In this document: positions 14,047-54,544 of the stretch, piece by piece
Numbering within the stretch: position 1 is the first letter of the stretch
How the letters are laid out: each line of letters starts with the position of its first letter
Origin: Nymphon striatum
Lineage: Eukaryota
NCBI GenBank assembly: GCA_016618385.1
Contig: JABFOP010000807.1
Span: 280,216 to 335,549, forward strand
Direction of reading: 5' to 3'
DNA: 55,334 nucleotides
Made by a program: the position numbers and the translations under genes
Notes under the pieces: generated by a model
Seen by the model: only the letters and a program-made list of their open reading frames with translations
What the model was told of the DNA's origin: nothing
Databases searched by the model: none

Positions 14047-15689
14047 TATTCTACATTATGGCGACCTTCAAGTTAAGCTCTATTCTCAATAATTAGTTCC
14101 TCCAATAAATGTTTACTAATGAAATAATGAAGCATTTTGAAGTTTTTATGCAAATATCAGTTTGAAATTTAGAAGAAGAAAAAGTGGCTCAATGTCATGT
14201 CAAAAATATACTCATGAGAGCCATGTTATTGTTTTAATACTACTCAAAAATTATTTCAAATTTAGGTTATCTTCTTTGTCAATTAACAATGTTATCATGT
14301 AATGATGTAATCCTTGAAAATCCCCAACTAGCTGCTCAGTAGTATCTTTTAAAATTATTGTAGATAAATTTTGTATGTTGAAATCAAACATACATTGTTT
14401 AAATTACCAGTTATAGCGCAACATAGGTGCAGGTCACTAGTTGTGGAAAGTAATTCAGTCATTGTATCACAACTAGCTGAAGAAAGAAGAAATGGGAGAC
14501 CTTTGACAAATGAAAATGATCTGTGTTTATTTTGCAATAACACAAGGCTTATATGCACAAGGGACAAGAGAAATTTGAAAGGTATGTGAATAGAAGAACC
14601 ACAGGTGAAGAGAAGGATTAATCTCTGGCACATTTTTACTGTCCATTCCACCACTGCCACCATGTAACGAATGTACGTGGGACCATTAATAAAGAGATAG
14701 ATAACTAACTACCTCTTACCTCTGACAGGAATCGAACCCGCACCTCCCAGCTTGCAAGTCAGGTATGCTACCATAATACTACAGAGGTAAACAGTGTGTA
14801 CCATCATATTCAGATCTGTACTCTCACATTACACCACTGTAGGGAAAAGCTTTACCAAGGTGAGAAAGAAGAGGAAATTGAAGTCGTCATTGTTACAGGA
14901 CTCCACACCACAGTGATAACGTCCAGTAAAGCCGGCTCAAGTCAAACAGTGCAAATGTAATTGCAGGTGCCGAAGCTGATTGTGAGGATGAAACTGGTCT
15001 TGAGGATGAAGTTAGGTCATAAGTGAGAGTTTCCTGTGAGAAGTTGTATCAAACATTACATCTGGATGATGTCACAGTTAAACCATAGCGCTATTCCTAT
15101 ATCCAAATGTATTACACAGCTGTATTTTCAATTAAACTCTCTCTTGCCTGTAGAATTTCAAACCGTCAATATGTAGTCCCTCATTCAATATCTTACATTC
15201 CTCGTCCTAATAACCGAACCTCGATCAAGTAGCTCATTCATCAAATTTATAAAACCAAACATGCTACAATTGGCAACCCTGGCGTGATGTTTGCCACAAA
15301 GTTGACCTGTGAGAGTCTGTAACCATTTGGAACAAAGCTAGAAGAATGTGGAATTTGTAGGCAGACAGACAGCAACCAGCTAGAAAGTTTTCTTTGACAG
15401 GAATGGCATTATCCATGTCCGATTTCACAGGGTCTACAGTGTGAACGTACGTGGGACAGGATCATTTATCCTACAATGAATTTATTTTCCAATACAATAC
15501 AAGACGCGATAGACGAGATATTTAATCAATATGCAAATGAAACCTAGGGTGAGTTGCTATACAAATCAGAATATTCAATTTTATTCAAATAAATAGGGTC
15601 ACCAGTTGTAGCGCAATGTAGGTGCAGGTCACTCTAGTTCCACTAGTTGTGGAAAGTGACTCAGCCATTGTAGCAATGACTAGCTTAAA

Positions 15690-16240
15690 GGCATACTCCA
15701 CTCATTTTGAATAATCTCTGAAATGATAGAACAGGGCGAGTTAAGCAGATCCTGAAATTTTTTCACTTATTTGACATCGTTAAATATTTTTTTAATTGAT
15801 AAAACATTAATTGTAACGAGAGGGTAGAGAGCGGCCATTTTATTATCTACATCCGTAAATACGTCAGAGGCGCGACTCTGCTTCCGACATTACCAGGCTG
15901 ATCAACATTTAACCTCCTCCTTTTCGGCTCGAATCGATACGGTTTTATTCCCTTTTTACCAGCATAATTTTGAAAAATATCTTCATCACTTGAATCAATA
16001 GAAGCTTCAGCCATCTTGGTAAATGTCACAGCGCTGCTGATGTCACGCCTGATAAGTCACGTGACTTTGTCCAAAATGGCAGCTGCTCTAATATCCAAGA
16101 TTGTGGTTTTTAAAATGAGTTTAAAAATATTAAATGAACTCGAAAACAATTCAAAAAATCAGGAATTGTTATTTGATATATGTACTATGGATTGGGAATT
16201 TTTTTTTTTTTACACCCAGTGAGTGGAGTACCCCTTTAAG
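15690..16240. mobile_element. Small TIR element of the tactccactca family (TIR ttaaagg-N-tactccactca) with a short minus-strand ORF (MAEASIDSSDEDIFQNY...)
   Basis: The left end ttaaaggcatactccactcat and the right end gtgagtggagtacccctttaag are inverted. An internal 150 bp is shared with 35290-35520. Confidence 0.65.
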
Positions 16241-16736
16241 AAAGATGAAATGAGAAACAAAATATTTGACAGATAAATATTTTCTGAGTTTATTTTGCAA
16301 TACAATACAAGATGCAAATTGAGTAAGAGAAAGACCAAGGTCTCTCAGAAGAGAATATTAAAGTCTTTCGTTGCTACAATGTATTGAATACTTATCATCC
16401 AATCACAAATAACCCACTGCACTTCAACTTACTCACCATTGTTATGAGTAAATATGTTATATGCTGTTAAGTATTACTAAGAAATTTGGAATAACTCATT
16501 CATGATATTTCTCTCTTAAACTTAGAATAACATTTTCTTCCTGCATCATTCTAATAGTTTTTGATATTTTTACGAACATTTATTTTACAGCTTATACTTT
16601 ATTAGAAACTATATCCTAATTTATCAATCATTTTGTCTTTTCCATATTTTGTATTTCTGATTGGAAAGATATTTTCTGTTTTATTATCCTATTTATATAG
16701 TAATTATAGAAAGTTGCTTCTTTCTCCACTCACTAG

Positions 16737-23398: not shown

Positions 23399-23760
23399 TT
23401 TATTAGGATTTTTGGTCCTTTGGGGTTGGCAGGTATGTATGTGGTGAAGACGCACACAAAGTGTAAAGATTTGACCCAGACAGTGAAGAGTAGCAAGTGG
23501 AACTGGGCCGGACACGTGACTAATAGAACAGACGATAGATGGACCACTAAAACCACAATTTAGATAGCAAATAGGGGAGAAAGAAAACGAGGAAAACCGA
23601 AGATAAGCATGGATATTATTACCATGGATGATATAGCTAAATTTGAAAGTAATTGCGTGGAGAGAGCTGCCGATAGAGAGGACTGGAGATCTAGAAGGAA
23701 GGCCTTTGCTCAGCAGTGGTCCTAGTTGGGGCTGATGAAGATGATTTATTTTACAGGTAT
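23399..23760 (+). mobile_element. RTE-clade LINE 3' end fragment (ORF2 C-terminal tail, KWNWAGHV.RTDDRWT..T.W) nested inside the hAT element
   Basis: It is about 85% identical to 31150-31440. It ends in a gatgaagatgat simple tail. Confidence 0.7.
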
Positions 23761-28584: not shown

Positions 28585-29190
28585 TCAGTCTCACCTTAAT
28601 AATAATAATGTTTATCACATAATAGGGCGGTTATTCTACCGATCTCAGTGGACATAAAAATGGTATAAACACACGTGTAAAAACGTTTTTTAAAACGATT
28701 AACTTCTTAACGGTGAGAAATGTTTTTAATGGGCAACCGATTTTAAGTGACAATAATCTTGAACAATGACAAATGACTCTTAATAGTTTTCGTAATGGTT
28801 TTCCACTTTACTCAGATGTTTTTATTGCATTTGACTTGACCGGGTCCCCATTTTAATGGCTTGACCGGAGGGCTTCAATAGTGTCATTTAACTTATTTAC
28901 GATCATTTTAAAGAGGCGACAGACCGGAAAATGTTTATAATGATTTGGCCAGAGGGCTCTTTGATAAAACCTTACACTTTTCTTTATACATTTGTTATAG
29001 CTGAATCTATTTTAAATTAATTTAAATTAATTTTCAAAGCTATCTATTGATTATGTGATGTCCACGTCGTATACAGAATATATGACGGGCACTCATCACG
29101 TATCCTTTATATACTTTTTTCTTGAAACCGGTCCCTATATTCGAAAGAGGCAACCCCCCCCCCCCCCATAAAACAAATCCTGGATACGGG
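28585..29190 (+). repeat. About 600-bp interspersed repeat family copy 1 (cacataatagggcg ... acgattaacttcttaacggtgaga ... C15 tract)
   Basis: It is about 88% identical to 33785-34315. Partial copies lie at 40020-40170 (+) and 43795-44100 (-). It ends with a poly-C homopolymer. Confidence 0.75.
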
Positions 29191-29749
29191 CATGGTTAAA
29201 GAGTTACAAGCAGTTTCCTTCGAATTATTTTACGCATTTTGCAATTATTTTTAAACTTTTAATGACTATATTTCATTACAGAATTAAAATAAATAGCAAT
29301 AATGATTATTGACAAATAGGGAGGGAATAAAACATTTTTGTAAATTTTTTAAATCTGTACTTATTTGACCTTTGACCTCTGACCATATCCAGCAGCTGTG
29401 CAACGCAAGACTCACTTTTCTGAATACGTCTTAGTATGATCTATTCAAAAATACCAAGCAGACACGTGGTCATTTTATGCAGATAAATCACCCCTGGATC
29501 TCATATCCAACGGTCACGAATTTTATATTCGGTTTATCACACAACCGACAGATAGCTTCAAAAATTAATTTATAAATTAAAATAGATTTTGAAATTGATT
29601 CAACTTGATACATGCAGTAAAGCTACACAACCACTCACACAGTAACAGGTATAAGGTACATTATAGGGGGACATTATAGGCCCCCGGGCAAAACAGGCAA
29701 AAGTTACAACCAATTATTGTTTGTGAAATGTTTCAGAGTTACAGAAAAA

Positions 29750-30772: not shown

Positions 30773-31655
30773 GGGGCCATTCAGAAATTACGTAACGCCG
30801 GAGGGGGTGGGTCATGTTTAACAGAAATGTAGAAATCCAACCCATTATGACAGGAAATGTGGCCTTGGACCAAGTTGATAGATATACTTATTTAGGACAG
30901 CTTATCTCAATACACAGAGACTGGGAGCCTGAAGTGAGGCGACGTGTTGCCCTAGGTTGGCAAGCTTTCGGTCGCCTGAACAATGTTTGGCGCAGCATGT
31001 TACCTCTCTGCTTGAAGCGGAAGGTATATGATTAATGTATCCTGCCTGTACTAACATATGGGTCAGAGACCTGGGCAATTACAGATACCCTGTTGAGAAA
31101 ATTGGCGAGTGCACAACACAGTATGGAAAGAAGGATCCTAGGTGTGAGCTGGAGGGATAGAAAGACTAATAGTTGGGTGAGGACACAAACAGGGTGTAAA
31201 GATTTGACCCAGACAGTGAAGGGTAGCAAGTGGAACTGGGCCGGACACTTGTCCCGTAGAACAGACGATAGATGGACCACTAAATCCACAATTTGGATAA
31301 CAGATAGGGGAGGAAGAAAACGGGGAAAACCGAAGAGAAGGTGAGTAGATGATATAGCTAAGTTTGACAGGGATTGGGTGGATAGAGCTGCCGATAGAGA
31401 GGACTGGAGATCTAGACGGGAGGCCTTTGCTCAGCAGTGGGCCGGTACAGGCTGATGATGATGATGATGGGGGGTGGGGTGTCTGGCAACGTGTTACATA
31501 ATACCATCAAGGTTGCCAGATTGGCCTTTTTAAGGCCAATTTTTGCAATTTCGGTCTATTTTAGAGGGATGAGTTCATACTTTTGTTACGTAATTTTTTA
31601 GGGGGTTATGTCAATTTTGGCGAAAAAAGCATTACGTAAATTTCTGAATGGCCCC
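30773..31655 (+). mobile_element. Small TIR element (TIR ggggccattcagaaattacgtaa) carrying an RTE LINE 3' fragment: uninterrupted paralog of the 34646-42335 element
   Basis: 30773-30795 is the reverse complement of 31633-31655. The internal 30814-31470 is an RTE ORF2 tail ending in (GATGAT)n. Confidence 0.7.
30814..31470 (+). mobile_element. RTE-clade LINE 3' end (ORF2 C-terminus, frameshifted) with a (GAT)n tail
   Basis: ORFs 30814-31035 and 31093-31344 match the RTE/BovB ORF2 C-terminus (LGQLI..EVRRRVALGWQAFGRL ... QRSMERRILGVSWRDRKTN ... KWNWAGHLSRRTDDRWT). It ends in gatgatgatgatgatgg. Confidence 0.8.
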
Positions 31656-33784: not shown

Positions 33785-34315
33785 AATAATAATGTTTATC
33801 ACATAATAGGGCGTGTAAAAACGTGTTATAAAACGATTAACGTCTTAACGGTGAGAGATGTTTTTAATGGGTGGTCGATTTTAAGTGACAATAATCTTGA
33901 ACAATGACAAATAGCTGTTAATAGTTTTCTTAATGGTTTACCACTTTACTCAGATGTTTTTATTGCGTTTGACTTGACCGGGGGCTTCAATGGTGTAATT
34001 TAATTTATTTACGAGCATTTTAAAGAAGCGACAGATCGGAGAATGTTTTTAATGATTTGGCCGGGGGCTCTTTGATAAAACCTTACAATTTTCTTTATAC
34101 ATTTGTTCAAACTGAATCTATTTTAAATTAATTTTAATTAATTTTCAAAGCTATCTATTGATTATTCGATAAACAGAATACCAAACTTGTCCACGTCGTA
34201 TACAGAATGTATGACGGGCACTCATCATGTATCCTCTATATACTTTTTTCTTGAAACCGGTCTCAATATTCAAAAGAGGCACCCCCCCCCCCATAAAAAA
34301 TCCTGGCTACGGGAA
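33785..34315 (+). repeat. About 600-bp interspersed repeat family copy 2
   Basis: It is a paralog of 28585-29190 and includes a C11 tract. Confidence 0.75.
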
Positions 34316-35962
34316 TGGACCTTCCTATCATCCCATCCACCGATGACACTTCAACATACACACAGCTTTTTCATGCTGGATTCTACTATATTATCTTCTG
34401 ATATTTTGAATATTTAGCAATGTTCGTATAAAAGTACAAAAGTACCAACAAAGAAACAATAAAACGATAAAATAAAACGATCTTATTCAATGGCTGAAAT
34501 TGAATTAGGGCCTCGGATACAGTCAACAGCCGTCCTTAAAAGACTGAAGCTGATTTTTCTTTAAATCCAAGCAGATGTCTGAAGATTAGAGAGGAAAGCA
34601 CGAGAACACAACATTTTCAATCATTTATGCTAAATTATATACTTAGGGGCCATTCAGAAATTACGTAACGCCGGAGGGGCGGGGTGTCCACCCTAGTGTT
34701 ACAGAGGATTGGGGGTGTTTGGCCAAGTGTTACATAACACCGTCAGGGTTGCCAGATTGGCATTTTTAAAGGGATACTCCACTCATCGGGTGTAGAAAAA
34801 AAAATTCCCAATCCATGGTTATAGTACGTATCGCTGGCTGGGAGCAAAAACGTCGTATTTACCATTTTTTTTCAATTATAAGTCTATAGCATAATCTTGT
34901 TTGGCAATGAACATGGATTCAATTTTTGCATGGACGATGTGATTTTCGTCCTTGGGAGTGACACTAGAAGAGGGAAAAAAGATCGTATGTGCCAGAATAT
35001 TCTTTTATTTAGAGTGAAAACATATCGTAACTGAATTGTTTGTGTGAATTCTTGTAAATAAGTTATGATGTTTTTGCTCTCAGCCAGCGATATATCAAAC
35101 AACAATTCCTGATTTGTAAACCTTTTTTATCTACTTATTTAATATTTTTAAACGTATTTTAAAATCACCTACTTTGGATATCACGGCAGCTGCCCACCAT
35201 ACAACCGCATTTATTCGAGCCAAGGAGAGGGTAAATGATGGTGATCAGTTTCGGCTCGAATACATACGGTTGTATCCCTCCTCCACTAGCCTAATTCTGA
35301 AAAGTATCCTCATCACTCGACGAATATATATAAGCGTCAGCCATCTTGATGAACTACTGAGCATTGAATGCACGTCACATATGACGTAACAGTCAGAAAT
35401 GGATGATGCTGTGATATCCAAAGTAAGTGATTTTAAAATACGTTTAAAAATATTAAATGAACTAGAAAATATTTCAAAAAATCAGGAATTGTTGTTTGAT
35501 ATATATCTATATTTATAATTCTCAAATTTAGTTCAACACATTTCCACCAGGATTCCTTACCTATTCGAATGCTCGGTTTTCTCCAAATTCAGTCTCTCCT
35601 GAGTCGCGTAGATCCGTCAACTTCTACACAATGCATGATAACTAAGTTGGAGTCGTCAAGTTGAAAACAAATTAATGATTCCTCCGTTGTTTTATATTTA
35701 ATTAATTAAATAAAACTCCTCAAGGTTTCGCCTGTGGCGCTGCTATCCGGTGTATGGAAGTTGTGACGATTTCTATATTTTAGTATATTTTTAAGAAAAT
35801 AATCAAAAATAATAAATAACCATTGCCATGAATATATTAATAATATTTATAAAGGTTTACAACACTTATTTTAAGAAAGAACTAGATTTAAACTAAATAT
35901 AGCCGTGTAAAATGTTGATGGTTCAATTCATACTGTAGCCATATGTTAATTTTTTCCCCGTA

Positions 35963-38900
35963 TAGTCCGGCAGCCAAACCCAATTTTAAGGCTTAACCCG
36001 GACTTGAGGTATTAACTTTTTTTGAATGCTGATATTTGTTCATTAGGACCTCTTCATTGAAAAACCAGATGATGCCACTTTGTCACCCTTGAGCAATTTG
36101 AGATAATTAGCATAATTAATAATGGACGCCAAATATTCATATTCCCCTTATGACGCCTGATACATTGCCACAGAAAGTATATAAATTGAATTCTAAACAT
36201 GTTTTCTTATCATTACTGAGTGAAAAGAGACTCTTGATCAATTTGGGATAATTAGCAGAATTCAAAATGGCCGCCAAATAGTCGTATTTTTATTTTGATA
36301 CCTTATACATTGCTATAGACAAGCATGTCAAGCTATATATTGTATTCGAAACATGTTTCATTATTATTACTGGTTTACATGAGACACTAGCTATATTTGT
36401 GATAATTATTAAAATTCAAAATGGCCGCCAAATATTCTTATTTACTCTTTTGATACCATTTAAATTTCTATAGACAAGCATTTCCGGCTGAAAATTATAT
36501 TAACAAGACATTTTATTACAAATGTTCTAAAGAAAATCTGAAGATTTTAATTAATCATATAAGCATAAATTTCTAGTCATCATCCTCGCTGACATCAGTG
36601 GGTCTTGTCATTCAATTTTGACAAGCATGGACCCTTGACAATTGCAAAATATAGTACATGAAAGTCCTGCCATTACATCCACATTTCTTTGAAATGCATG
36701 GTCCTATACTTTCGCAAGAACATTTAATTAAAGTAAGATATCCGAGATATCCTTAGGTGCGAAGGCCACATTGTCAGGAACAGTTATCGTTTGCAAGGTT
36801 CTTTCTTCTTTCTTGAATCCAAATAACTCTGGATCTAAACTGTCGGTATGAGGTCCAGGATTGCTTCCATATGCAGGCTTGTAAGTGGGCACGTTTAACA
36901 TTTTCCTTGAATGACTCATTGGTTGGTGGTAAGAGGTTAAACTTAGGTGTCCCAGTTTTAGTTTGTGCAGTTTTTGAAGCCCATACATCAAGTCTTACTT
37001 GTGACAATGACTCAGAATTAGGATTTCCATAACATACCAAATAAACTTAGTGGCATAAGGCAACACAGCTTCAATGTCAGAGTTAATGTCACCTAGGAGA
37101 TTTGGGTAGATACCAGACTTGGCCACTTTGAGAGCTCTAGTTTTGTCAATCCCATGACACTGAGCCACTGTGTCCCACCCTGATAAATGCATGAGTTGGC
37201 AAGATCATGTTCACATATGGTTTGTATTTCTTCACAGACTCCTGAATGTCAATGACACTACGACCTTTTTGTGGTGCTTCCATGTACATTCTGCTATTTA
37301 AGTTTAGTAAGTTGTAAAAGTTAAGTAGCAATACAAAGATATCAGTATCATCTGCTTCAACTTCAACTGACAGGTTACTTTCTGCTAACATCATTGCCTG
37401 TTGTACAGTCAGCTTCTTCATGTGATGTAGCAATGCAATGCCTCGTAACTACTTCTTTGTGAATCTCAACAGGAATTCCATCTTGGCTTGTTATAACTTG
37501 CTTTTCCTCTTGTGTGACTGCTCGTGGAATGATTTGTCACTTATTAGATGACTACCGATTAACCCAATCAGTTGCTTATTGTTTCCATCAACATTTAGGC
37601 TGACTTCTTTTGCTGGCAATTCAGAGTTTATCGTTGTGAGGTAGTGAATTTTACCAACACCAGAAGCTCTCCCACTTCGTGCTGCACTCTTTGTACTAAA
37701 GTTGAGATACCTATAAAATATTAGATACACATCACCATGTCTCAGTCTCCATTCAATAAGGCTCTTGAATCCAGCGCTTAAATCTGCTACTGTGCCCTTT
37801 GTTGGCCAGTTAGGAATCCAGATAAATGCTGATCCATCTATCACAGTAGCATCTATTAGAATAGTCCTAACAGATGTTTCCACTTGTAACCTCTTCAACT
37901 TCGCTCTATCTGTCATGAATCTTATAGCTCCTGAATCATTGAACATTGAAGTGGGCACAGGAGCCAGTTCATATGAAAAGAGGTCCTGAAGATTAAAATT
38001 ACGTGCACTCGCCTGAACACCAATTATTCTTGAATAAATCAATTCAATATCAAAGAGACGATCAGAGCCAACTGGAACATGTTTCTTCAATGTAACTAAG
38101 GTTTCAATCTTTTTATGAATAGTCCCATGAAATCCATTTGGCTAACTCTTTTCAAAGTTCTTGATTTCCCTTTCATCAATTTTCACAGACTCATGAGCAT
38201 TCACTGACGGAATGCAACCTGGCCAGTAACTACGTTAACTATTTCAGGTGGATGTTCATCTAGATTCAGTAGATCAAAACATAAGGAAATCTTCCTCCTT
38301 AAGTTATCTCTGTCTCTGCCATCTGAGTGAATGCTGGTATTGGACTCTTCATTTCAGTACTGCTCATTTGTCTTTCCTTCTGTAAGATTAGATACACCAT
38401 TTTCCAACTGGCTGCAGATGTGTAAGCTCAAAGCCCACATCTTCAGTGTGTTTGGTTTCAGTGTTACACCAATGATCACACTTTGACCTTTCCCGTAGCG
38501 CATAAATGTTGCCTCTATGAATTGATCACTCCAAATACTGTTCCAAATGCCGTCTCTGTCTCCATGCATTTCATAGAAATGTGGATGTAATGGCAGGACT
38601 TTCATGTACTATATTTTACAATTGTCAAGGGTCCATGCTTGTCAAAATTGAATGACAAGACCCACTGATGTTAGCGAAGATGATGATTAGAAATTTATGC
38701 TTATGTGATAAACTAAAATCTTCAGGTTTTCTTTAGAACATTTGTAATAAAATGTCTTCTTAATATAATTTTCAGCCGGAAATGCTTGTTTATAGAAATT
38801 TAAATGGTATCAAAAGAGTAAATAAGAATATTTGGCGGCCATTTTGAATTTTAATAATTATCACAAATATGGCTAGTGTCTCATTTAAACCAGTAATGAT

Positions 38901-39291
38901 AATAAAACATGTTTCGAATACAATATATAGCTTGACATGCTTGTCTATAGCAATGTATAAGGTATTAAAATAAAAATACGACTATTTGGCGGCCATTTTG
39001 AATTCTGCTAATTATCCCAAATTGATCAAGAGTCTCTTTTTACTCAGTAATGATAAGAAAACATGTTTAGAATTCAATTTATTTACTTTCTGTGGCAATG
39101 TATCAGGCGTCATAAGGGGAATATGAATATTTGGCGTCCATTATTAATTATGCTAATTATCTCAAATTGCTCAAGGGTGACAAAGTGGCATCATCTGGTT
39201 TTTCAATGAAGAGGTCCTAATGAACAAATATCAGCCTTCAAAAAAAGTTAATACCTCAAGTCCGGGTCCACCTCAGGTTCTGCCGGACTAG
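35963..39291. mobile_element. Long-TIR DNA transposon-like element: about 750-bp TIRs (35963-36720 and 38585-39291) with three subterminal tandem about 120-bp repeats (..aaatggccgccaaata..), termini tagtccggcag, possible 3-bp target-site duplication (TSD) GTA
   Basis: The arms are reverse complements over about 700 bp. Both flanks read GTA immediately outside the termini. The interior holds a minus-strand nuclease pseudogene. Confidence 0.75.
36728..38605 (-). pseudogene. FEN1/XPG-like (PIN-fold 5'-nuclease) family ORF, frameshifted, inside the long-TIR element
   Basis: Overlapping minus ORFs (37491-38090, 37146-37433, 36774-37040) encode IDATVIDGSAFIW, GDVYLIFYRY, EADDTDIFVLLL and a C-terminal NLLPPTNESFKENVKRAHLQ. 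It is a paralog of the + ORF at 40772-41997. Confidence 0.6.
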
Positions 39292-39522
39292 TAAATATTC
39301 TATGGCGGAATACATGGAATAGCAGCAGACTGCCATAGCAACTCAACTGCACAAGAAGGGAATTTGTTATTTAAACAGCGCAGTCAAGTTTTTAGTACGT
39401 ATTTTTTAAAGTTAATATTATTAAACGTTATAGGTAGAATAAGTAGGTTTTTTGAATAACTTTTAATGATAAAATGTATTGTGTAAAAACTGTAAAACTT
39501 AAAATCCTTTATCTACTGCGCT

Positions 39523-39744
39523 GTGTACACTTTTGAATGTGACTTGTGTGATGCAAGTTATGTTGGGTACAACCTTGGGTACAACACCACCCGACATCTC
39601 CATCAACGTAGACAATCACAACACAAATACTCTGCTATTGGGAAGCACTTAGAAACAAAATACAGTGTGGACAAGTCATCATCACCCATTGATCACCTGT
39701 TCAAATGTGCTGAAAAAAATGCAAGACCAAGTTTGACTGTCTAA
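39523..39744 (+). pseudogene. Penelope-like element GIY-YIG endonuclease fragment (FECDLCDASYVGYN..TTRHLHQRRQSQH...SAIGKHL)
   Basis: GIY-YIG-type motifs: C-x2-C, YVG, R.L..R..QH and SAI..H. It is an isolated 73-aa ORF. Confidence 0.5.
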
Positions 39745-40771
39745 TATACGAAATGTTCTACATCGGTCAAATGAAACCCAACTTGAACACCCAAAGTGAT
39801 TCTATTCGGGCGAAACTTTTTATTTGATTGTCTTTTTATATTTAATTTTGTTATTCAATTTTCAAGATGTCAGGTCACCTCAAAAGTTTTCTTTCTTTTT
39901 TTTACTTCTCTTCTTCTGCCTTACAGCTTTTTATTCAACTAATTTACATACTTGAAAAAGTTTTTGAAAGGTGCTTTCAAACCACTATTTCACATTTTAT
40001 TGAAGGAGATCCAATTTTATAACATAATAGAGTGATTATTCTACTGATCTCAGTTGACATAAAAATGGTATAAACACACTGTACGAATGTGTTATAAAAC
40101 GATTAACTTCTTAACGGTGAGAGATGTTTTTAATGGGTAACCGATTTAAAGTGACAATAATCTTGAACCAGGAGAATTTGGGGGAGATTTTTATTGTTCG
40201 GGGAAGTACTTTAATTTATGACCAATGACCAAGGCCAAGGCTCGCTGAAATAAAAAAGTAATTTCAGCTCGCCAAGGCTCGTTGAAAAAACAACATAGCC
40301 CGGGCGATTTGGGCGAAATTTTGCATGAACCTCAAACAAATTATTAACAACGTGAAACTTTCAGGAAATGTTCCTTACTACATTACTTTAGACATACTAA
40401 AACCCCACCGATCCCCAAGGGGTGGAACATCATTTTTTTTCACCTTGAATTTATTTAATTTTGCATTTTTTTTTGTCAATTTTGAGCTGGGGTAGGTCAC
40501 TTTAAAGGTGTATTGCCAGGTAACTACTTAAGATATTGAAGTGAAACTTGGCCAACATGTTTACCATAGGATGGGCAATGATTTTATGGGCTTAATAATA
40601 TCTGCTGACATCAGCAAAATTTGATGACGTCATCAAAATTCAAATTTTAATGATTTGTTGAATTTTCTTGATACCTGGAAGTTTTTTACTAACCAAAGTT
40701 AAACTTGTTTATAAATAAATAAAAATATTTATATCGAGGAAACGATTTTTAATTTTTCTAAAAAATATATA

Positions 40772-41997
40772 ATGACATCATCTTTTCTTAAGATTTCAAA
40801 ACTCAAAATACTACAAAGATATTTGACAAGATCCGTTCATTCACATCTCGTCCAAAATGTCGAATATATTGCCATCATTGTCAATGTCGTCTTCATTTAC
40901 AGTTTCCGTGGCTGTTCTCTAAAAGGAAATCATATTTTAGAATCGTCAGAATCGTCAGAAAAAGCTGATGTTGATCCAAACGCCTTGCATGTTCTTGATG
41001 GAGGAGCACTTTTGCACAAAGTTCGATGGTCCTACCAGCGTCACTTATAGAGAAGTTTGCGATCTTTATGTTAATCACATCAAATCAAAATATGGCATTG
41101 GTACAATTGTATTTGATGGATACATGGATGGACCATCTACTAAAGATCATGAACACGCAAGAAGAAGTCTCAACAAAAGAAGATGTGCAGATGTTCAATG
41201 TGATCTTTCAACAAAGGTCAATTTAAAACAAGATGTTTTTTTTATCGAGCATCACCAACAAATCTCGTTTGATTGACATGTTATCAACTTATTTAATCAA
41301 GTCTGGCAACAAAGTAATCAAATGTGACGAAGATGCAGACACCGAGATTGTTAGATGTGCATTATATGTTACAGAGACTGGAAGAAAAGTTAACGTAGTT
41401 GCAGACGATACAGATGTTGCTCTCTTACTTTTATACCATTGGAGTGAGAGTATGGAAGAAATTACATTTACTTCTGAGAGATCAAAAGCCACCTTTAATA
41501 TCACTTCTTCCTTATTGAAGATACCTGCTCAGATCAAATCATATCTTCTGGTCTTACACGCCTGGACTGGCTGTGACACGACATCTGCAATCCATTCGAA
41601 AGGAAATAATTCATTACTAAGGAAGTTAAAAACTTCTCAACACCTTCAAAGCTTGATGGATATTTTGAGTGACAAAAATGCTGATCAAGTAGAAGTTGGC
41701 GCAGCAGGAATCGAGTTGTTCTTGTACATGTATGGAGGAAATCAGACCTTGACTGAACTACGGTACGCATTTCCTTACTTTCCAGGAAAAAAAAACATTA
41801 GCATCTTGTTTGCAAGCTTAATGCTTGATATGTGCACTAGCAGATTTGTAATTTTTCTTATCTCAATATTCAATAATACTTATTTTTTAGCTACTACAAG
41901 TTTATGGATATGGCAGCTAAAGGTGAGATACTACCAGAAAACCTTCCACCAACAGAGCGAGCAGCAGTTCAACACAGTCTACGGGTCCATCAGCAAG
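40772..41997 (+). CDS. FEN1/XPG-like PIN plus H3TH nuclease-family ORF, second paralog (frameshifts; putative 128-bp intron 41763-41890)
   Basis: Motifs: HVLDGGALLHKVRW, GIGTIVFDGYMDGPSTKDHEH, VVADDTDVALLLLYHW and AWTGCDTTSAIHSKG (H3TH-like). After splicing GTACGC...TTTTTTAG the C-terminus reads ..TELRYYKFMDMAAKGEILPENLPPTERAAVQHSLRVHQQVVV*, which aligns to the minus copy's LPPT tail. Confidence 0.55.
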
Positions 41998-42721
41998 TAG
42001 TGGTATGACAAACGTATACGACGGGCACTCAACACGTATCCTCTATATATTTTGGCTGGTACTCTTCCATACTGATCGGACTAACCCGTCAGGGACGGGA
42101 CCCTCTAGTATACTATGGATTGGAAAACATTATGTTTTTTTTTTTTTTACACCTAATGAGTGGAGTATGCTTTTAACTTTAAGGCTACATTTTGCAATTT
42201 GGGCCTTTTTTAGAGTGATTTGGCCTGGAAAAATTGGGGGGAGGGTCATACTTTTGTTACGTAATTTTTTAGGAAAGGTGTGGTTAAGTGTCCATTTTGG
42301 CGAAAAAAAGCGTTACTTAATTTCTGAATGGCCCCTCATATGCTAAACAAACAATCGCAAACCTATCTATACTACATAGCGGTATTAATTTGTATTGCAG
42401 ATTGGGAAAAAAACAGTTTTGATTATTTCTAAAATACAGCTGCAAATATAGTATATAAAGCAAAAACAAATTCATACATTTTTACATGCTAATTTTAAAA
42501 TTTATATATAGAGGATACGTGATGGGTGCGTCGTATACAGAATATGTATGTGCTCGTAAACATTGCTGTTATTTTCAGCGAGCCTTGGTGAGCTAAAAAT
42601 AAATCAATGTTATAGCGAGTTTCATATATTCTGTATACGACGTAGTCGAGTTTGGTATTCTGTTTATCACATAATCAATGGATAAGTTTGAAAATTAATT
42701 AAAATGAAGTTAAAATAGATT

Positions 42722-43690
42722 CATAAATATTAAGGCCAGGGATATGGTTTTTAAAGCCATTTATTTTTTTATTAAAAAATAAAAACATAACAAACGTTTC
42801 GGCCATCTAGGCCATCATCAGTGAACAAAGATCAAATAAAACAAAATCGTAAAATATCCAACTTTAAAGAATTTTTTTTAAATGATATGCAGAAAGGAAA
42901 GAAAAAAAGAAAAGAATAAATAAAAATTCAGTTTAAGATTGCCAGCGGATAGGAAGAAAGTGTGTCGTTTAGTGAAGGTCGTTTTTTATATATGTGGATG
43001 CTTTCTAAAATTCTGAGTTCAATATCCGACTTAGCAGAACCAATAATTGCAAAATTTGAAAGAGTTATTTGACATTTGCAACTATTGGTATGCTGTCGAA
43101 TACTGCTGTGAGGTGGGTTTGAAAGGGGGTTGTTGGATCGAAAACTCTTACCAGCATGTTCTGCAACTCTCCTGTATAATTGTCTCTTGGTAGTACACCT
43201 GTCTCTTATATTGGTTCTACCAAGAGACAATTATACAGGAGAGTTGCAGAACATGCTGGTAAGAGTTTTCGATCCAACAACCCCCTTTCAAACCCACCTC
43301 ACAGCAGTATTCGACAGCATACCAATAGTTGCAAATGTCAAATAACTCTTTCAAATTTTGCAATTATTGGTTCTGCTAAGTCGGATATTGAACTCAGAAT
43401 TTTAGAAAGCATCCACATATATAAAAAACGACCTTCACTAAACGACACACTTTCTTCCTATCCGCTGGCAATCTTAAACTGAATTTTTATTTATTCTTTT
43501 CTTTTTTTCTTTCCTTTCTGCATATCATTTAAAAAAAAATTCTTTAAAGTTGGATATTTTACGATTTTGTTTTATTTGATCTTTGTTCACTGATGATGGC
43601 CTAGATGGCCGAAACGTTTGTTATGTTTTTATTTTTTAATAAAAAAATAAATGGCTTTAAAAACCATATCCCTGGCCTTAATATTTATAA
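42722..43690. mobile_element. Perfect palindrome (about 480-bp arms, about 20-bp spacer at 43196-43216) formed by head-to-head Penelope-like element 3' ends
   Basis: 42722-43195 is the reverse complement of 43217-43690. Each arm encodes an identical 100-aa GIY-YIG ORF (42928-43230 - and 43180-43482 +: YIGSTKRQLYRRVAEHAG ... SSIRQH ... ILESIHIYKKRPSLN). Confidence 0.85.
43180..43482 (+). CDS. Penelope-like element GIY-YIG endonuclease domain ORF (one of the two inverted copies)
   Basis: It carries the YIG.T.R.L..R..EH ... S.I..H ... LE..HI.....LN signature. The mirror copy lies at 42928-43230 on the minus strand. Confidence 0.7.
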   Translation: MSLGSTPVSYIGSTKRQLYRRVAEHAGKSFRSNNPLSNPPHSSIRQHTNSCKCQITLSNFAIIGSAKSDIELRILESIHIYKKRPSLNDTLSSYPLAILN

Positions 43691-43794: not shown

Positions 43795-44100
43795 AGTCTT
43801 CGTTTAAAAGGGGACATTTAAAGAGGCCATTAACAAAATCACTCTTGTTACTTCAAAACATAGGTATTTTAGAATATTATTGAAGCACTCCCCCTCCCCC
43901 GGCAAGCCATTAAAAGGGGGACTGAAAACTATTAAGAGCCATTTGTCATTGTTTAAGATTATTGTCACTTTAAATCGGTTACCCATTAAAACATCTCTCC
44001 CCGTTTAGCAGTTAATCGTTTTATAACACGTTTTTACACGTGTGTTTATGCAATTTCTATGTCCACTGAGATCAGTAGAATAAATGCCCTATTATGTGAT
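43795..44100 (-). repeat. Partial inverted copy of the about 600-bp interspersed repeat family
   Basis: It is the reverse complement of 28585-28900-type sequence (..cccattaaaacatctctc.ccgtt.agcagttaatcgttttataacacgtttttacacg..). Confidence 0.7.
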
Positions 44101-44314
44101 AAACTTTTTTGGTATATCTTTTTATTATGTTTTATTAATTGTGTATACATTTTTTATACATTTTATGTATATGTATGGCTAGCCTATGTAAGCCAATTTT
44201 TATCTTGAATTATAAAAAAAAAAGTAAAAAAAGAAGCAAATTGATGGATGCATCATCATTATTTAACAAAATTTTAAATCGTTTATCATACATTTACCAC
44301 TTTTTAACCTACCA

Positions 44315-44884: not shown

Positions 44885-46275
44885 AATAGGCTTTATCACA
44901 CAACCTTGGCGTTATTGCATGCATAGAGTACCAAAGTGTGACGTCACTTTTCAGGCCTGGACCGCAAACTATTTTCAGCCCAGCTATTTTCCCATAGGAG
45001 ATTTTTGCTTAATCTTTCTTTCGTTATTTTCACCGAAATTTCGCACAGTTTTGTTGGTAAAAGTTTATTTTGGTCATTTGTGATACGAAAATGTGTCATT
45101 TTTATTGATTTTTCATTCGTTGTTTGCGTCGCAGCTTCAAATTATAGATAATTGAGTAGTCCCAGAGACCTGATATATATACAAGCATGGGTCAGTGTTT
45201 CGTGACAACATAAAATCACATAAGAAATTTTACAGAAATAAGAACATAACATTTTTCTATAGAATACTAATTAACCACAATGAAAAAACATGTAATTAAT
45301 CATAAATGAGAACAAAAATATATAAAAATAATTCTGACTTTCTGATTGATCAGTCAGGAGCGAAACACTGAGCCATATTAAACGGTCTCTCAACCTACTC
45401 AAGCCGACTCAACTATTAATTTGAAGCTGCGAGGTAAACAACGAATGAAAAAAGCAATATAATGTCACATTTTCGTATCACAAAGGACCAAAATAAACTT
45501 TTACCAACAAACTGTGCGAAATTTCGGTGAAAATAACGAAAGAAAGATTAAATAAAAATCTCCTATGGGAAAATAGCTGGGGTGAAAATTTTTTGCGGTC
45601 CAGGCTTGAAACGTGACGTCAGCACTTTGGTACTCTATTTGTGGGTTGTATATTTATTGTATTAGGACACGTCCGTATATCGTTATCGTATCGTACACGT
45701 TCTATATTGGTGTCCGATTACAGACACAGGAAGTCTGAGATTTTGAATCTTACCTACCACGAATTTATTTTCCTTTTGTTATATACGCCGCTTACAGAAA
45801 AAGCCGCTTCTCTAGTTTCACTTATCTAGGCGTGACTCACTTTTGTTTATATCGTAACGCATCTTTCTCTCTTTCTCTCTTTCTCTCTTTCTCTCTTTTC
45901 TTTTCTCTTCTTTTTTTTCTTCTTCTTCTCTTCCTCTCTCTATTTCATACTTTCTAACCGAGTTCTCGGATTTCATTAAATGTTTGAAACTCAATAGCCT
46001 ACATATTTCCTTTTCTTCACAATTTAATTTTTTTTTTTTTTTTTAGCTTGACTGGCACAAAATGAATCAATTTTAAAATCTATTTTAATGAATAAATTCA
46101 TTTTTGAAGCTACCTGTAGGTTGTGCGATAAACAGAATATAAAATTCGTGCCCGTTGCTTATGAGATATATGGAACTCGCCAACTTAGTTTTAATTTCAG
46201 CTCGCCAAGAAATGACAAAGTTGACTTGTTCCATATATCTCGTAAGCAACGAGCACTCATTCCATATCCTCTATT
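44885..46275 (+). repeat. Interspersed repeat (paralog of 29750-30330) containing a nested TA-flanked MITE and a long (TC)n-rich tract
   Basis: It is collinear with 29750-30330 apart from the insertion at 44926-45635 and one about 50-bp indel near 46185. Confidence 0.75.
44926..45635. mobile_element. Tc1/mariner-like (Stowaway-type) MITE with about 230-bp near-perfect TIRs and TA target-site duplication (TSD)
   Basis: TA occurs at 44924-44925 and 45636-45637. The termini gagtaccaaagtgtgacgtcac are inverted. The paralogous site at 29795 is empty (gcatgcaTAggggg). Confidence 0.75.
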
Positions 46276-47539: not shown

Positions 47540-47935
47540 AATGTGATCTCACAGTGATATCACAGTGATATCACAGTGTGAGAAATTGTGAGAAATATGT
47601 GATATCACTGTGATATAAAAAAACGTACTAATAAAATATCACAGTTATATCACACTTGTGATATCATACCTGTGAGAAATCTGTGATATCACTGTGATAT
47701 CAAAAAACGTACTAATAAAATATCACAGTTATATCACACTTGTGATATCATACCTGTGAGAAATCTGTGATACCACTGTGATATCAAAAAACGTACTAAT
47801 AAAATATCACAGTTATATCACACTTGTGATATCATACCTGTGAGAAATCTGTGATATCACTGTGATATCAAAAAACGTACTAACAAAATATCACAGTGAT
47901 ATCACACTTGTGATACCACGCACCCCCCCCCATTA
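47540..47935. repeat. Tandem satellite, about 84-bp unit x 4.5, built from the palindromic GTGATATCAC decamer (cacagtgatatcac)
   Basis: The unit aaaaaacgtactaataaaatatcacagttatatcacacttgtgatatcatacctgtgagaaatctgtgatatcactgtgatatc repeats at 47616, 47702, 47786 and 47870. Confidence 0.85.
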
Positions 47936-47984: not shown

Positions 47985-48345
47985 TACTTACTGTAGAACG
48001 GGGTTACTTTGCACTGCAAACTTTGCACAAAATTAGAATTTTTCTTGTTCACCACGTATACTCTGTATGTAACGAGATATCACGAAATAAAAAAAAATTA
48101 TTTGATGTATACATGTATAAGGCATTATTCTACCACATTGATGGGTTTATATTTTTTTCAAGTACCAATAAAAAAAATATAAACCCATCAATGTGGTAGA
48201 ATGTGGCCTTATACATGTATACATCAAATAATATTTTTTATTTCGTGATATCTCGTTACATACAGAGTATACGTGGTGAACAAGAAAAATTTTAATTTTG
48301 TGCAAAGTTACCAGTGCAGTGCAAAGTACCCCGTTCTACGGTACT
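47985..48345. repeat. About 170-bp-arm inverted repeat (hairpin-forming)
   Basis: 47993-48160 is the reverse complement of 48172-48339. Confidence 0.8.
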
Positions 48346-48750: not shown

Positions 48751-51323
48751 ATAATCAGATATACAGGAAAGACAATGATTGGAAAGTATACCCCATATTT
48801 TGGAGGTTATCTATCCTCTGAAATTTTCAAAATATGTTCAAATGTTACTTTGTGCATCTATATTTTTGGTCCGTTTAATTGAAGAATTGGGTGTTAAAAG
48901 ATAGGACATTAAAAAACATTTTAATTGTTAATATAGACAATAACTTAGCTGGAAAAATGTGGGAATGCAGGCACATATAAAGGTATGAAAATGATTATTG
49001 ATATTCATGAATGAAATAGGACACATTAAATTGAAATATCAAAATAAAATAAAATCAAAATAACATATATAATCAAAAAAAATTTAAGTGAAATCAGATT
49101 GATAGCCTAAGTATTTCTGAAAAAGAAAATGAGAAATCTAATACTCTTCCATTATGTGGAACAGCCATTAACTTTAGAAAGAAACTTAAAACTTGGATTT
49201 CAGATGATGTCATATAAAAGTTATGTCATTGGAACCTTTTGTTATACATAATTAGTTCCATTAAACGACCCAACACTTTACATAACTTGAGATATATCAA
49301 TTTACATAAAAAAAAAAAAGATAGAATTAATTATAAGTATAGTTAAAAATATTATATTATTTTCATAAAGAAATTTAAAGTTAAAAAAAAAAAAAAACGA
49401 ACTACGTAGTCATTTTTTAGAACACAACAAATTATATTTCAAATTAAGGTAGGAAAAACCATTAAACGCGAACCTCATTCCTACTCTGAGTTAATCATCA
49501 AGCAGAATTTGCTAGCTTATCAACCATATATAACGCGAGATATTTTAAATGACGGCCATCATTGTATACGGTGGCCAACCAGCACAGCGGAGCTAATACG
49601 CCAAGTCATGACGAGTGCTAATTTCAGTTTATCGATGTCATCTTGCATATGCTTCTGGTTGACCTTCAATTCGTTAACAACACGGAATGTTTCTAAATTG
49701 ATATCTGAGGAAAAAATGGATGTCATTTAATATTAAATATTTTCAAATTCAACAAATCAAAACTATGTCAACTATCAAAAGAAAAATTAAATAACAAAAA
49801 CCGAACATGGTAAAGAACGTCAAAGCTGCATCAAATTAGAATTTTAAAAAATTAGAATTACGTATCAATCTTTGAAAATCTGCCATGGTTGGCACTGCAC
49901 TTGCCTTGAAAGTAGAGCCGTGCTTACACACGGCATTCTGTGCGAGGTAGTGTCTCCAGTTGCGATCTATCTAAAGAATAAGGCTGATTGCATATCGGTC
50001 CATGAAGAGGATGAATTTTTGGAGGGATGTAATTACGTGGTTTACAGGAGACTTGTGACAGGCGTGGTGTTGATGTGAATCTTGGAAGATCATCTCCATC
50101 ACTGTTATCAGAAAATTGTGGAATAGGTGGCATTTCCTCAGAGGTTTAATTAGTTTTTCCATATATAAATCTGTTTAAATAGACCAATCATAATAAAAGT
50201 AAAATATAAAGAGTCCGTAAAATACACTCGAAACATTAGGTGATAGTCATGAAATTAAAAACATAATTCATTGGAATAAGTCAGGACGTTCAATAATGGA
50301 TTGTTAAATAACTTCACAAATATATTTCAAAAAATCCCATTTCATTAATCATTATAACTTCATATTTCATATATATTATAACTAATAGTATATTTAGTAT
50401 TCTTGTATCTATTATCTATTTGACAATGCTATATATACCGCCCCGTTATTCTTAAATTTCTAGAAAACTGTACCAATAATTAATCATTTACATGTTAATA
50501 TGTCAGTCTTATCAATAGTTCATCTCTACTTTCAAATGATTAAAAATGTAACAATCATATTTTATTGGAAGATCTATTGCAGGCCTATTTATTTATTATA
50601 TACTAATTTTGATACATTTACATATTTAAAAACTGATCACAAGCAGTTAAAAGGAAAATACTGAAGATATATATATATGCTTCATACTATACTTTCTGGA
50701 TCCATTTCATCGCTAGATGAGAACTGCCGCTTTTTGACCATTTTTCTTTTTTGTGGTTCAGGGTTTGTTGCCGTATCATCAGTTTGAGTGTCGTTAAGTG
50801 TGACATTTCCAGCCGATGAATCTGATCTTATATCAGACAGGCATTGATCAGCCAATTCATAAGATTCTGAAATAAGCAACAGAGTCAATTCCAGAGAAAG
50901 GTTCTACTTTTCACGATTTTTCAAATTCAACATTATATAAAGGATACGTGATGAGTGCCTGTCGTATACAAAATATTTGAAGCTCGTAAATATTGTTGTT
51001 TCTTTCAGCGAGCCTAGGCGAGCTGAAAATAAATCACTATTAGCGAGTTTCATATATTCTGTATACGACGTTGTCAAATTTGGTATTCTGTTTATCGATA
51101 TCACATAAATGTATCTTATTTTATATTTTGGCCTTGTTTTTTCTTGCATTTAATCAATAAAATGTTAATAGCCTGTTTGAAAATATGTTAGTCTTAACTG
51201 AAAAGAAATTGTTATATATAATCTGCTAACTTACAAGCAATTTTAGCACAAAAATATTATTAATAAATATAATATTTCTGAATAAGTGTGATGTATTAAT
51301 GATTAATATATGAAGAGTACGCA

Positions 51324-51710: not shown

Positions 51711-52225
51711 CGAAATTCAGTCAGACAATACATAGGTACTCAAATCCCCTGATACATATAGTCATATGCATTTACAAATGTCTGATTAATTAGGAGATTA
51801 TAATATATATCATGAAAAGTTCATGAACTATGGCTATGGTTAAATATGGCCAAATAGTCCGTGTGGTACCTAAATTCGCAAAATTCTTGAATATAAAATA
51901 TAAATGAAAATATAGATAACGGTCGTACATGATGATGAGAAGAATATCATCTACTATTATCTAGACTATGTAACGTTATTATATCATGTTTCTCGCGACA
52001 GATCTTTAAAACGGAATGGAATAAATTTATTTGCTCACCTTTTAAGTTTTAGGCTTTTTTCCAAATTCTTGCTTTTCCGCCATTTCTTTACTTTAATATA
52101 TATGCAGCATGGTCTGTAATGTCCGTTAAGCTGCCTGTTGAGCATGTGTTGAAATAAAACGAGCGGGAGGATTTATTAACAAAGGAAACGAGATTCACGC
52201 ATGCGACATCTGGCGGAAAAATTGT

Positions 52226-52605
52226 ATGATATCACACACGTGAGTTACATGTGATCTCACAGTGATATCATGTCTGTGATATCATACACGTGATATCACT
52301 GTGATAACACACGTAACTCACGTGTGTGATCTCACAGACATGATATCACTGTGAGATCACTGTGATATCATACATTTTTTGTTTTTAATGCTTGGAAATA
52401 GAAAAAAAAAGGAATATTTATGATATCACTGTGACATCACTGTTATGTCACACTTGTGATATCACACATGTGAGATCACTGTGAGGTCACTGTGATATCA
52501 TACTCGTGATATCACAGACATGATATCATTGTGAGATCACTGTGATACCATACTTGTGATATCACGCATGTGAGTTACATGTGATATCACTGTGATATCC
52601 TGTGA
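52226..52605. repeat. GATATC-rich palindromic satellite (gtgatatcac / gtgagatcac / cacgtgag units), a second locus of the 47.5-kb family
   Basis: It is a dense array of GTGATATCAC-type decamers arranged as nested palindromes around 52380. Confidence 0.8.
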
Positions 52606-53345: not shown

Positions 53346-53540
53346 TTTCAAATTTCAATGAAATAAAATTTAAATAATTACATTAAAATGAACTAACTGT
53401 AACCTTTAATTTGAGCTATAGAACATGACATAACACTACATAGTTCTCGAGATATGTTGAATTAAAGTTGTGAAAAATAAAAATGTTTTCCAGTTATAGT
53501 TTGCATGGCGACACGCATAGGCAAAAGTTGAGAGAGATTT

Positions 53541-54075
53541 ACATAAATAATGCATCACTCTGCCAAATTTCAGCGTTTCCTCTGTGTAAAAAAAAAAACA
53601 AAAAAAAGGGGGGGGGGAATTTTGGGCGGTTTTTTCCCCGTGTATAGCGAGCAATGCCATTTTGGATCAATATGGCGATTGACACTCAAGACCCCCACGG
53701 TTCGCTAGTTACATAATAATGCATCACTATGCCAAATTTCAGCGTCTGATGTGTAAAAATGCGCCCGTGTATAGCGAAACAAACACACCACACAGTTTGG
53801 CGCCATTTGGATTCAATGGCGATGATACTCAAGACCCCCACGCTCTCTAAGTTACATAATAATGCATCACTATGCCAAATTTCAGCGTGTCTATGTGTAA
53901 AAATGCGCCCGTGTAATAGCGAACAAACACACACACACCAGTTTGGCGCATTTGGATTCAATATGGCGATGACACTCTGAACCCCACGGTTCGCCAAGTT
54001 ACATAATAATGCATCACTATGCCAAATTTCAGCGTCTTATGTGTAAAAAAATGCGCCTGTGTATAGCGATCAAAC
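53541..54075. repeat. Minisatellite, about 150-bp unit x 4 (acataataatgcatcactatgccaaatttcagcg...gtgtatagcga)
   Basis: The units start at 53541, 53710, 53864 and 54000. Confidence 0.85.
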
Positions 54076-54544
54076 AAACGGAAACTTCATTATTAATAAG
54101 ATTGAAAAAATTCAATAAAATAACAACACAATCAAATTTAGTCTGTTAAAAAAATATTTTAAAATATTTCTTTTAAAATATAATTTTTTTTACCAAAACC
54201 CGAATATAACCCAACCTCATACAACGAGTGGACCATCCAATCTACAATCCTACACAAATCATGAAATTTGCCATTTTTGCCATTGTTAATTAGTTCGGTA
54301 CTGTACTGGAATGAGCACATCAATCCAATTTCACTCCCATGCTCCTAACCGTACGATTACAAGGGTTGTATCCACACTTTTCGTGCAGAATTGAAATATC
54401 TTCCTGTTAAATGCATATCAGTAATCAGCCTCATATGGAAGAAGTTATATCAACACAAGTTTTTATTTCAAGTGGAAATCATCCAATTGAAATTATCATA
54501 TTCGATCATATGGGTTTATGGCAGCTGAAGGCTGTATCAAATCT

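Follow-up and report, generated by a model that had tools for sequence, protein, structure and literature searches.

We begin by considering a question that a single locus raises: how did one miniature inverted-repeat transposable element (MITE) in the genome of the sea spider Nymphon striatum come to lie in two parts, its ends at positions 34646 and 42335 of a 55,334-nucleotide stretch of contig JABFOP010000807.1 (positions 280,216 to 335,549, forward strand)? This whole stretch is referred to below as the window. An initial annotation had read the 7.4-kb insertion between the two parts as a possible composite, mobilized by the terminal inverted repeats (TIRs) of a small element. We arrive at a different answer. 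With a probability of about 0.8, the locus is a transposon nest, in which unrelated mobile elements inserted serially into one another and for which no capture mechanism is required. The Russian-doll nesting that had been proposed is real, and at five levels it is deeper than first described. All comparisons are confined to the window itself, which has a GC content of 34% and proves on self-comparison to be densely filled with repeats, or to marine metagenome contigs that carry distant relatives (L001, L002 and L006). The translated remnants of the window are 87-100% identical to annotated Nymphon striatum proteins.

The outer MITE and its empty paralog

The 23-mer GGGGCCATTCAGAAATTACGTAA is found at 30773 (plus strand), at 34646 (plus strand) and, with 1 mismatch, at 42313-42335 (minus strand), while 0 sites are expected by chance. 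The element with GGGGCCATTCAG TIRs is thus present twice, as had been claimed, and we call the two copies A and B.

30773-31655, plus strand: outer MITE copy A, with the TIR GGGGCCATTCAGAAATTACGTAAC and the flanks TTA and TTG; paralogous empty site for the inserted MITE E2
34646-34769, plus strand: left part of outer MITE copy B, with the TTAA target at its end (34766-69)
42173-42335, plus strand: right part of outer MITE copy B; it opens with the duplicated TTAA (42173-76), and an extra CTTTAA comes next (42177-82)
30813-31469, plus strand: 3' tail of an RTE-type non-LTR (long terminal repeat) retrotransposon inside copy A, ending in (GAT)n

Copy B has a 27-nt TIR at 96% identity, and the right end of copy A carries a 1-nt indel, one extra base. 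The two halves of copy B are collinear with copy A and, once the inserts are taken out, 91% identical to it in aligned columns, with few indels. The tetramer TTAA stands at both junctions (34766-69 and 42173-76), which delimits an insert of 7,403 bp (34770-42172), and copy A has one TTAA only at the position that matches this insertion site. Copy A serves as the empty-site control that it had been proposed to be. The split and the insert stand as first described; the split point given then was approximate, and the duplication is TTAA.

Copy A, in turn, carries a payload of its own, which had been named an RTE tail. The payload is bounded by GGGGGTGGGT (30803-12) and GGGGGTGGGGT (31470-80), a duplication of 10-11 bp. 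It encodes the C-terminal tail of a reverse transcriptase, 87-100% identical to Nymphon striatum proteins; the longer relatives carry RVT_1, and several of them are named 'transposon-derived protein F52C9.6' after a C. elegans protein, which we take to be RTE-1. Homology to a reverse transcriptase tail, 5' truncation, a target duplication and a simple-repeat tail are found together in 30813-31469, and they point to an RTE element. A second RTE-type tail lies at 23443-23745 and is 84% identical to 31176-31465.

The insert is a broken E-family MITE

We turn our attention to the insert. Its termini, and those of a small element elsewhere in the window, had been reported to share TACTCCACTCA. Exact matches are found at 15694 (plus), 16220 (minus), 34775 (plus) and 42157 (minus); together with one 1-mismatch site there are 5 matches where 0.6 are expected. 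We refer to the small element as E1, to the MITE that makes up the insert as E2, and to the two together as the E family.

15689-16235, no strand assigned: E1, a 547-bp E-family MITE flanked by TTAA (15685-88 and 16236-39)
34770-42172, no strand assigned: E2 plus all nested DNA, with AGG termini and a TTAA duplication; Kolobok/T2-like
34831-35090, no strand assigned: 260-bp MITE in the left arm of E2, with a TA duplication (34829-30 and 35091-92)
14406-14539, plus strand: uninterrupted empty-site paralog of the repeat that hosts E1, with the join at ~14480

The ends of the insert remain inverted beyond 20 nt: 39 nt at 87% identity as they stand, and ~155 aligned nt at 92% when the nested inserts are removed. 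On self-comparison, four pieces of E2 match E1. Two are inverted, namely 34763-34819 (the terminal arm of E1) and 35090-35194 (the subterminal arm). The others are 35249-35504, which matches E1 at 15922-16181 in direct orientation, and 42111-42176, which matches 16183-16239. The DNA that belongs to E2 itself comprises 34770-34830, 35091-35505 (of which 35091-92 is the duplicated TA) and 42109-42172. When 34770-34830, 35093-35505 and 42109-42172 are joined, the resulting 538 bp are collinear with the 547 bp of E1. The right 330 bp of the restored element are 82% identical to E1, and the match is continuous across the break (...TTTGATATATATATACTATGGATTGG versus ...TTTGATATATGTACTATGGATTGG). Because the restored pieces are collinear with E1, we take E2 to be a complete E-family MITE that was later broken at two single points.

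One of these points is the site of the 260-bp MITE, whose TIR, TCGCTGGCTG(G/A)GAGCAAAAAC, spans 21 nt with 1 mismatch (as a range, 21-29 nt). The other is the site of a far larger block, considered below.

Is the TTAA at the ends of the E family a true duplication? The repeat that hosts E1 (15601-15688 and 16238-16302) has an uninterrupted paralog 1.2 kb upstream, a second empty site within the window that the initial annotation had not noted. The empty site reads ACTAGC-TGAA-GAAAGA, the filled one ACTAGC-TTAA-[E1]-TTAA-GAAAGA. The paralog has only one tetramer where the two flanks meet, so the 4-bp duplication of TTAA is genuine. At each of the four E termini, TTAA is followed by A(G/A)G...TACTCCACTCA; the termini begin with AGGCA, AGGGG, AGGGA and AAGCA, all A plus a purine, and AGGRR is exact in 2 of the 4. 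A TTAA target duplication combined with AG/AGGRR termini characterizes the Kolobok and T2 MITEs (Hikosaka et al. 2018, PMC6004289). From its TTAA and AGG termini we assign the E family as a probable Kolobok-type MITE. Among the open reading frames (ORFs) of the window there is none for a Kolobok transposase (THAP + DDE). We also considered piggyBac, which duplicates TTAA and has CCC...GGG termini. The duplication fits, but the E termini are AGG...CCT, and this identity was rejected.

A Helitron-like block in the right arm of E2

The second break in E2 holds 6.6 kb of DNA.

35506-42108, plus strand: Helitron-like non-autonomous block in the right arm of E2, 6.6 kb, without TIRs

The block begins with 5'-TC (35506-07) and ends with CTAG-3' (42105-08), and these ends are not inverted repeats. 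A perfect hairpin, CCCGTC-AGG-GACGGG, lies at 42085-99, 9 nt from the 3' end, and the flanking bases are A (35505) and T (42109). These are the hallmarks of Helitrons as described for Helraiser and Helibat (PMC4778049). Within the window, TC preceded by A occurs at 1.6% of positions, and CTRR followed by T, with a hairpin of 6 bp or more upstream, at 0.02% of positions (11 in 55 kb). We estimate the joint chance of such hallmarks at the breakpoints as below 1e-4. Coincidence is unlikely because the breakpoints were fixed beforehand by the homology to E1 and because sites with the hallmarks are rare.

A Tc1/mariner-type reading of the block, with TA as the duplication, was rejected since its ends are not inverted repeats. 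At the Rfam gathering threshold, neither a hammerhead ribozyme nor any other RNA is found in the nest. Elsewhere in the window a tRNA match (14717-14788, minus strand, 45 bits) is above the Rfam gathering score; it could be a real tRNA gene or the tRNA-derived head of a short interspersed nuclear element.

The contents of the block

All the components that the initial annotation had listed inside the insert (a long-TIR element, a Penelope-type GIY-YIG fragment and a second nuclease paralog) are found within the block.

35963-39290, minus strand: AcademX-1, a putative internally deleted and decayed AcademX element, with TAGTCCGGCAG at both ends
39496-39826, plus strand: GIY-YIG endonuclease remnant, Penelope-like, 5'-truncated, with one frameshift
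40015-42049, plus strand: copy of the unclassified repeat F, with its 5' part at 40015-40176, loop part at ~40234-40294 and 3' terminus at 42013-42049
40295-42010, plus strand: AcademX-2, a putative second AcademX element, with homology between its left terminus, (A)TAGCCCGGGCGATTTGGG, and those of L001

AcademX-1 is flanked by a 3-bp duplication, GTA, at 35960-62 and 39291-93. The arms of its TIR are 706 bp long (35996-36701 and 38562-39267, 97% identical), with two 154-bp tandem units in each. On the minus strand it retains, with stops and frameshifts, the tail of a transposase, an XPG-like domain and a Cys-rich remnant. Of the transposase only the C-terminal tail is left, with FIKAER-like and WSDxxIE motifs (a weak match, E 0.08), and the Cys-rich finger, which the relatives P0067 and L001 possess, is degraded (E 0.34). 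The decayed frame shares the motifs DG, F(D)RY, DDTD and H..G.D with the second paralog. That paralog, the nuclease of AcademX-2, lies at ~40.93-42.01 kb on the plus strand and is 97% identical in amino acid sequence to Nymphon striatum paralogs. In AcademX-2 the transposase is deleted, the Cys-rich finger is lost and the 3' end is truncated at ~42010. Its own C-terminal exon is also present as an inverted copy (40844-40915, minus strand), 100% identical to residues 339-362 of P0002.

The ORFs had been called nuclease-like, and this description was apt: the "nucleases" are most readily classed as the XPG-like domains of AcademX proteins. The nuclease domain has the invariant acidic motifs DG, FDG, DAD and DDTD. 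A profile of the domain retrieves only human EXO1 (XPG/FEN family) from the PDB, at a marginal E of 0.02. Searched with the ORFs and the full-length relatives, Pfam has no model that fits the nuclease, GIY-YIG or RTE-tail fragments, and for L001 it gives a weak NYN_YacP match only. The assignment to AcademX follows from the relative L001, which joins an Academ-like transposase ORF, the nuclease domain and a Cys-rich tail. L001 is a 6-kb element with TIRs of ~350 bp, in which a 1029-amino-acid (aa) ORF is followed by the nuclease domain and then the Cys-rich tail. The ORF matches the transposase core of Academ-3_SK (Kojima 2020) at 38% over 446 aa (E 1e-80), and the nuclease domain is 57-64% identical to that of AcademX-2. 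Kojima 2020 (PMC7165386) defines AcademX by a transposase joined to an XPG nuclease and a Cys8 finger, and gives its target duplications in animals as 3 bp. The terminus TAGTC(C)GG is common to L001, L002 and the AcademX elements of the window. By these comparisons, AcademX-1 and AcademX-2 are best regarded as deletion derivatives of two AcademX families.

Pieces of the elements' own coding sequence also lie inverted in the long TIRs, at 36589-36701 and 38562-38674 (the FIKAER-like transposase segment) and at 40844-40915, minus strand (the C-terminal exon). This suggests a foldback-type rearrangement during the formation of the deletion derivatives. Several Nymphon striatum gene models that were named as enzymes or receptors (P0001, P0004, P0045, P0249 and P0274) share 81-97% identity with either the AcademX nuclease or the RTE tail; they are probably chimeras that have swallowed transposon fragments. 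An example of such a model is the '4-hydroxy-2-oxoglutarate aldolase', at 97% identity to the nuclease ORF.

Between the two AcademX elements lies the Penelope-type remnant. Homologs of this GIY-YIG fragment are 50-63% identical to it and carry PF01541. Their context was read in L006 (L003 comes without upstream sequence), where the GIY-YIG homolog comes immediately after an RVT_1 ORF in the same orientation, a Penelope-like architecture. Of the Penelope-like copy in the window, the GIY-YIG part alone is retained.

The copy of repeat F is interrupted by AcademX-2, and 40234-40294 matches the loop of the 3' hairpin of F. At the right junction of AcademX-2 and F, ~27 nt of F are missing, which argues that a deletion took the right end of AcademX-2 with them. 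The F family has neither TIRs nor a clear target duplication; the stem of its 3' hairpin is ~20 bp, intact in two copies and collapsed in two. Other copies are found at 28601-29195, 33785-34318, 42495-42680 (minus strand) and 50915-51100 (minus strand).

Order of events

We count the boundaries, terminal repeats, duplications and family assignments of the layers as observations. By sequence, the parts of the nest belong to known superfamilies, with repeat F unclassified; the families themselves are probably undescribed sea-spider members. The protein-coding remnants are all broken, so that nothing in the nest is autonomous. That the events occurred in place, and in which order, we infer from the topology.

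The nest would have started with a ~280-bp MITE with GGGGCC... TIRs, probably mobilized by PIF/Harbinger. E2, a Kolobok-type MITE of ~540 bp, would then have entered a TTAA in its A/T-rich center and duplicated it. Each arm of E2 offered a short (TA)n run, and both arms appear to have been struck: on the left by the TA-duplicating 260-bp MITE, and on the right by a non-autonomous Helitron-like element that would have entered between A and T. The Helitron-like element would have come to hold the 5'-truncated Penelope-type tail, the copy of F and the internally deleted AcademX-1 with its GTA duplication. As the fifth step, AcademX-2 may have entered the loop of the 3' hairpin of F, later losing its 3' part plus ~27 nt of F. 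Every layer would have chosen its target in its own way: the Kolobok-type MITE at TTAA, the small MITE at TA, the Helitron-like element between A and T, and AcademX at a 3-bp site, with A/T-rich and (TA)n tracts serving as recurrent landing pads.

Divergence rises outward. The nuclease of AcademX-2 is as close to its paralogs as the arms of AcademX-1 are to each other (97% in both cases, the former in aa), whereas copies A and B of the outer MITE are 91%, the arms of E2 92%, and E1 and E2 83% identical. Because the inner elements are the least diverged and their carriers the most, the inner layers appear younger, which fits serial insertion in place.

Having a filled and an unfilled site in one window had been said to make the insertion order inferable. 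The topology does order the layers, but only if each event occurred in place; since a Helitron-like carrier might have arrived loaded, the claim was overstated.

Weighing the alternatives

Several observations sit uneasily with the serial nest. At the outer level, the extra CTTTAA between the right TTAA of E2 and the outer MITE is absent from copy A. The 3-bp flanks of the outer MITE are not cleanly matched in the two copies compared (TTA/TTG in A, TTA/TCA in B), where a Tourist-like PIF/Harbinger element would have a TWA duplication. At the block, there are 2 extra nucleotides (TA), within a (TA)n run, relative to E1 and to the left arm of E2 itself. A Helitron should leave no extra nucleotide, and the TA may be a length variation of (TA)n or a TA duplication. 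The block is also single-copy within the window. About 1.2 kb of the block (35506-35962, 39294-39495, 39827-40014 and 42050-42108) is without assignable origin. These four stretches hold no ORFs, and a sensitive self-blast of 35505-35975, 39285-40020, 42040-42115 and 40170-40780 gave nothing informative except the match to the loop of F. We take the four stretches to be the Helitron-like element's own sequence. Further inward, the 3-bp duplication is clean in AcademX-1 only; L001 needs a 1-nt shift of its terminus, and in L002 the duplication is absent. Finally, the topology of nesting alone may also be compatible with a loaded element that moved as a unit.

This last point leads to the two ways in which DNA could have traveled together. 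The Helitron-like element may have arrived loaded, with some or all of the Penelope-type tail, F and the AcademX remnants inside it before it entered E2. We regard this as unlikely, though deserving appreciable weight. Helitrons copy themselves and carry acquired sequence (PMC4778049), and the Penelope-type tail and F are without detectable duplications of their own inside the block. On the other hand, the clean 3-bp duplication of AcademX-1 and the position of AcademX-2 in the loop of F indicate that these two were ordinary insertions at some time, and the block, being single-copy in the window, gives no evidence on timing either way. A loaded arrival would change the order of events, not the identity of the parts. 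Alternatively, the E-family ends may have moved the whole 7.4 kb into the outer MITE as one unit, as a composite or macro-transposon. Cut-and-paste transposases can carry large cargo between two good ends, and both ends of E2 and both TTAA copies are intact. In addition, Kolobok has a composite-like lineage, KolobokP, built as LTDR-INT-LTDR with long terminal direct repeats (PMC9587614). No KolobokP-like direct repeats are present here, however, and a composite requires a repeat unit at each end, while the insert has one E body split into 736 bp (including the 260-bp MITE) and 64 bp. What the initial annotation took for the TIRs of a small element around captured DNA is one complete, E1-collinear MITE, rather than two TIRs or two elements. 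The cargo enters it at two single points, each with its own independent insertion signature, and the deeper elements too show ends of their own (GTA/GTA for AcademX-1), which also counters the capture reading. The passengers, moreover, are at 97%, against 83% for the E family and 92% for the arms of E2. Because the passengers are less diverged, a move as a unit would need a very recent mobilization of an old MITE with mismatched tips (AGGGATAC versus AAGCATAC). No second copy of such a unit is found in the 55 kb. Taken together, these points make the composite improbable.

The two remaining alternatives deny the nesting itself, and both are very improbable. Were E1 an internal-deletion derivative of a long, E2-like parent, with the 6.6 kb as native E sequence, both breakpoints would likewise lie side by side in E1 (16181/16183), as they do. 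Against such a derivation, Helitron-type ends stand precisely at the breakpoints; the 6.6 kb consists of remnants of other superfamilies (AcademX, Penelope-type, F), with no Kolobok-type transposase ORF and with origin-less stretches that are short and ORF-free; and the left arm of E2 holds an uninterrupted version of the broken sequence. The region is extremely repeat-rich, which could invite a mis-joined assembly in which the nesting is not real. Yet ends match and duplications are in register at every level (TTAA/TTAA, TA/TA, GTA/GTA), and the outer halves are collinear with copy A. Random mis-joins would not give such nesting, which makes an artefact hardly credible.

Serial insertion in place therefore remains our preferred account of the nest. 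Beyond it, there is the more far-reaching idea that the Helitron-like element truly captures and spreads pieces of other transposons, or that the old Kolobok MITE can still be mobilized as a single unit together with its 6.9 kb of passengers. We consider this quite doubtful. If it were true in either variant, transposons would be trafficking the nuclease modules of other transposons.

Other repeats in the window

Immediately to the right of copy B lies a 967-bp near-perfect palindrome (42723-43688, 98%), which sits inside a reverse-oriented copy of F (42622-42723 and 43924-44110). Further large inverted repeats or palindromes (77-99.5%), possibly of foldback type, are found at 7688-8052/8365-8729, 11853-12385, 44923-45638 and 47989-48343. 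Satellite-like tandem arrays, partly interrelated and with periods of ~84-150 bp, occupy 47544-47918, 52217-52603 and 53539-54079.

Significance and comparison with known systems

The significance of the locus lies mainly in annotation, and no new mechanism is indicated. For a sea spider, whose lineage has little curated transposon annotation, it offers clean examples, with resolved boundaries, of Kolobok-type MITEs, of AcademX remnants and of a Helitron-like element. The two empty-site paralogs in the window provide a means to fix target duplications without a population sample.

With the T2-type Kolobok MITEs, the E family shares the TTAA duplication, the AG/AGG(RR) ends, a short non-coding body and long imperfect inverted arms. 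It differs in its host, a sea spider instead of a frog, and in 2 of its 4 termini, AGGCA and AAGCA, which are not AGGRR. The insert resembles KolobokP and the bacterial composite transposons in that several kb of other DNA lie between two Kolobok-type ends, but composites have a complete repeat unit per end where the insert has a single split MITE body.

The block shares with non-autonomous Helitrons the 5'-TC, the CTAG-3', a short GC-rich palindrome near the 3' end, the lack of TIRs and an insertion between A and T in AT-rich DNA. Its hairpin is shorter, with a 6-bp stem 9 nt from the end compared with 19 bp and 11 nt in Helraiser/Helibat. Unlike Helitrons, it has 2 extra nucleotides at its site and one copy in the window, and it has no Rep/Hel.

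As for AcademX, the relatives match in combining an Academ DDE transposase, an XPG-like nuclease and a Cys-rich finger in a single protein, and in having TIRs; the long-TIR copy in the window shares the 3-bp duplication. The two window copies differ in being dead deletion derivatives with most or all of the transposase gone, and in having very long TIRs into which 154-bp tandem units and inverted stretches of the elements' coding sequence are built.

Nested transposon clusters were first described between maize genes. The present nest is like them in that younger elements lie inside older ones, each level has its own ends and target duplication, and paralogous or empty copies delimit the inserts. 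While the maize-type nests are made of LTR retrotransposons, the nest described here is built mostly of DNA transposons, MITEs and a Helitron-like element, and it lies in the genome of a chelicerate.

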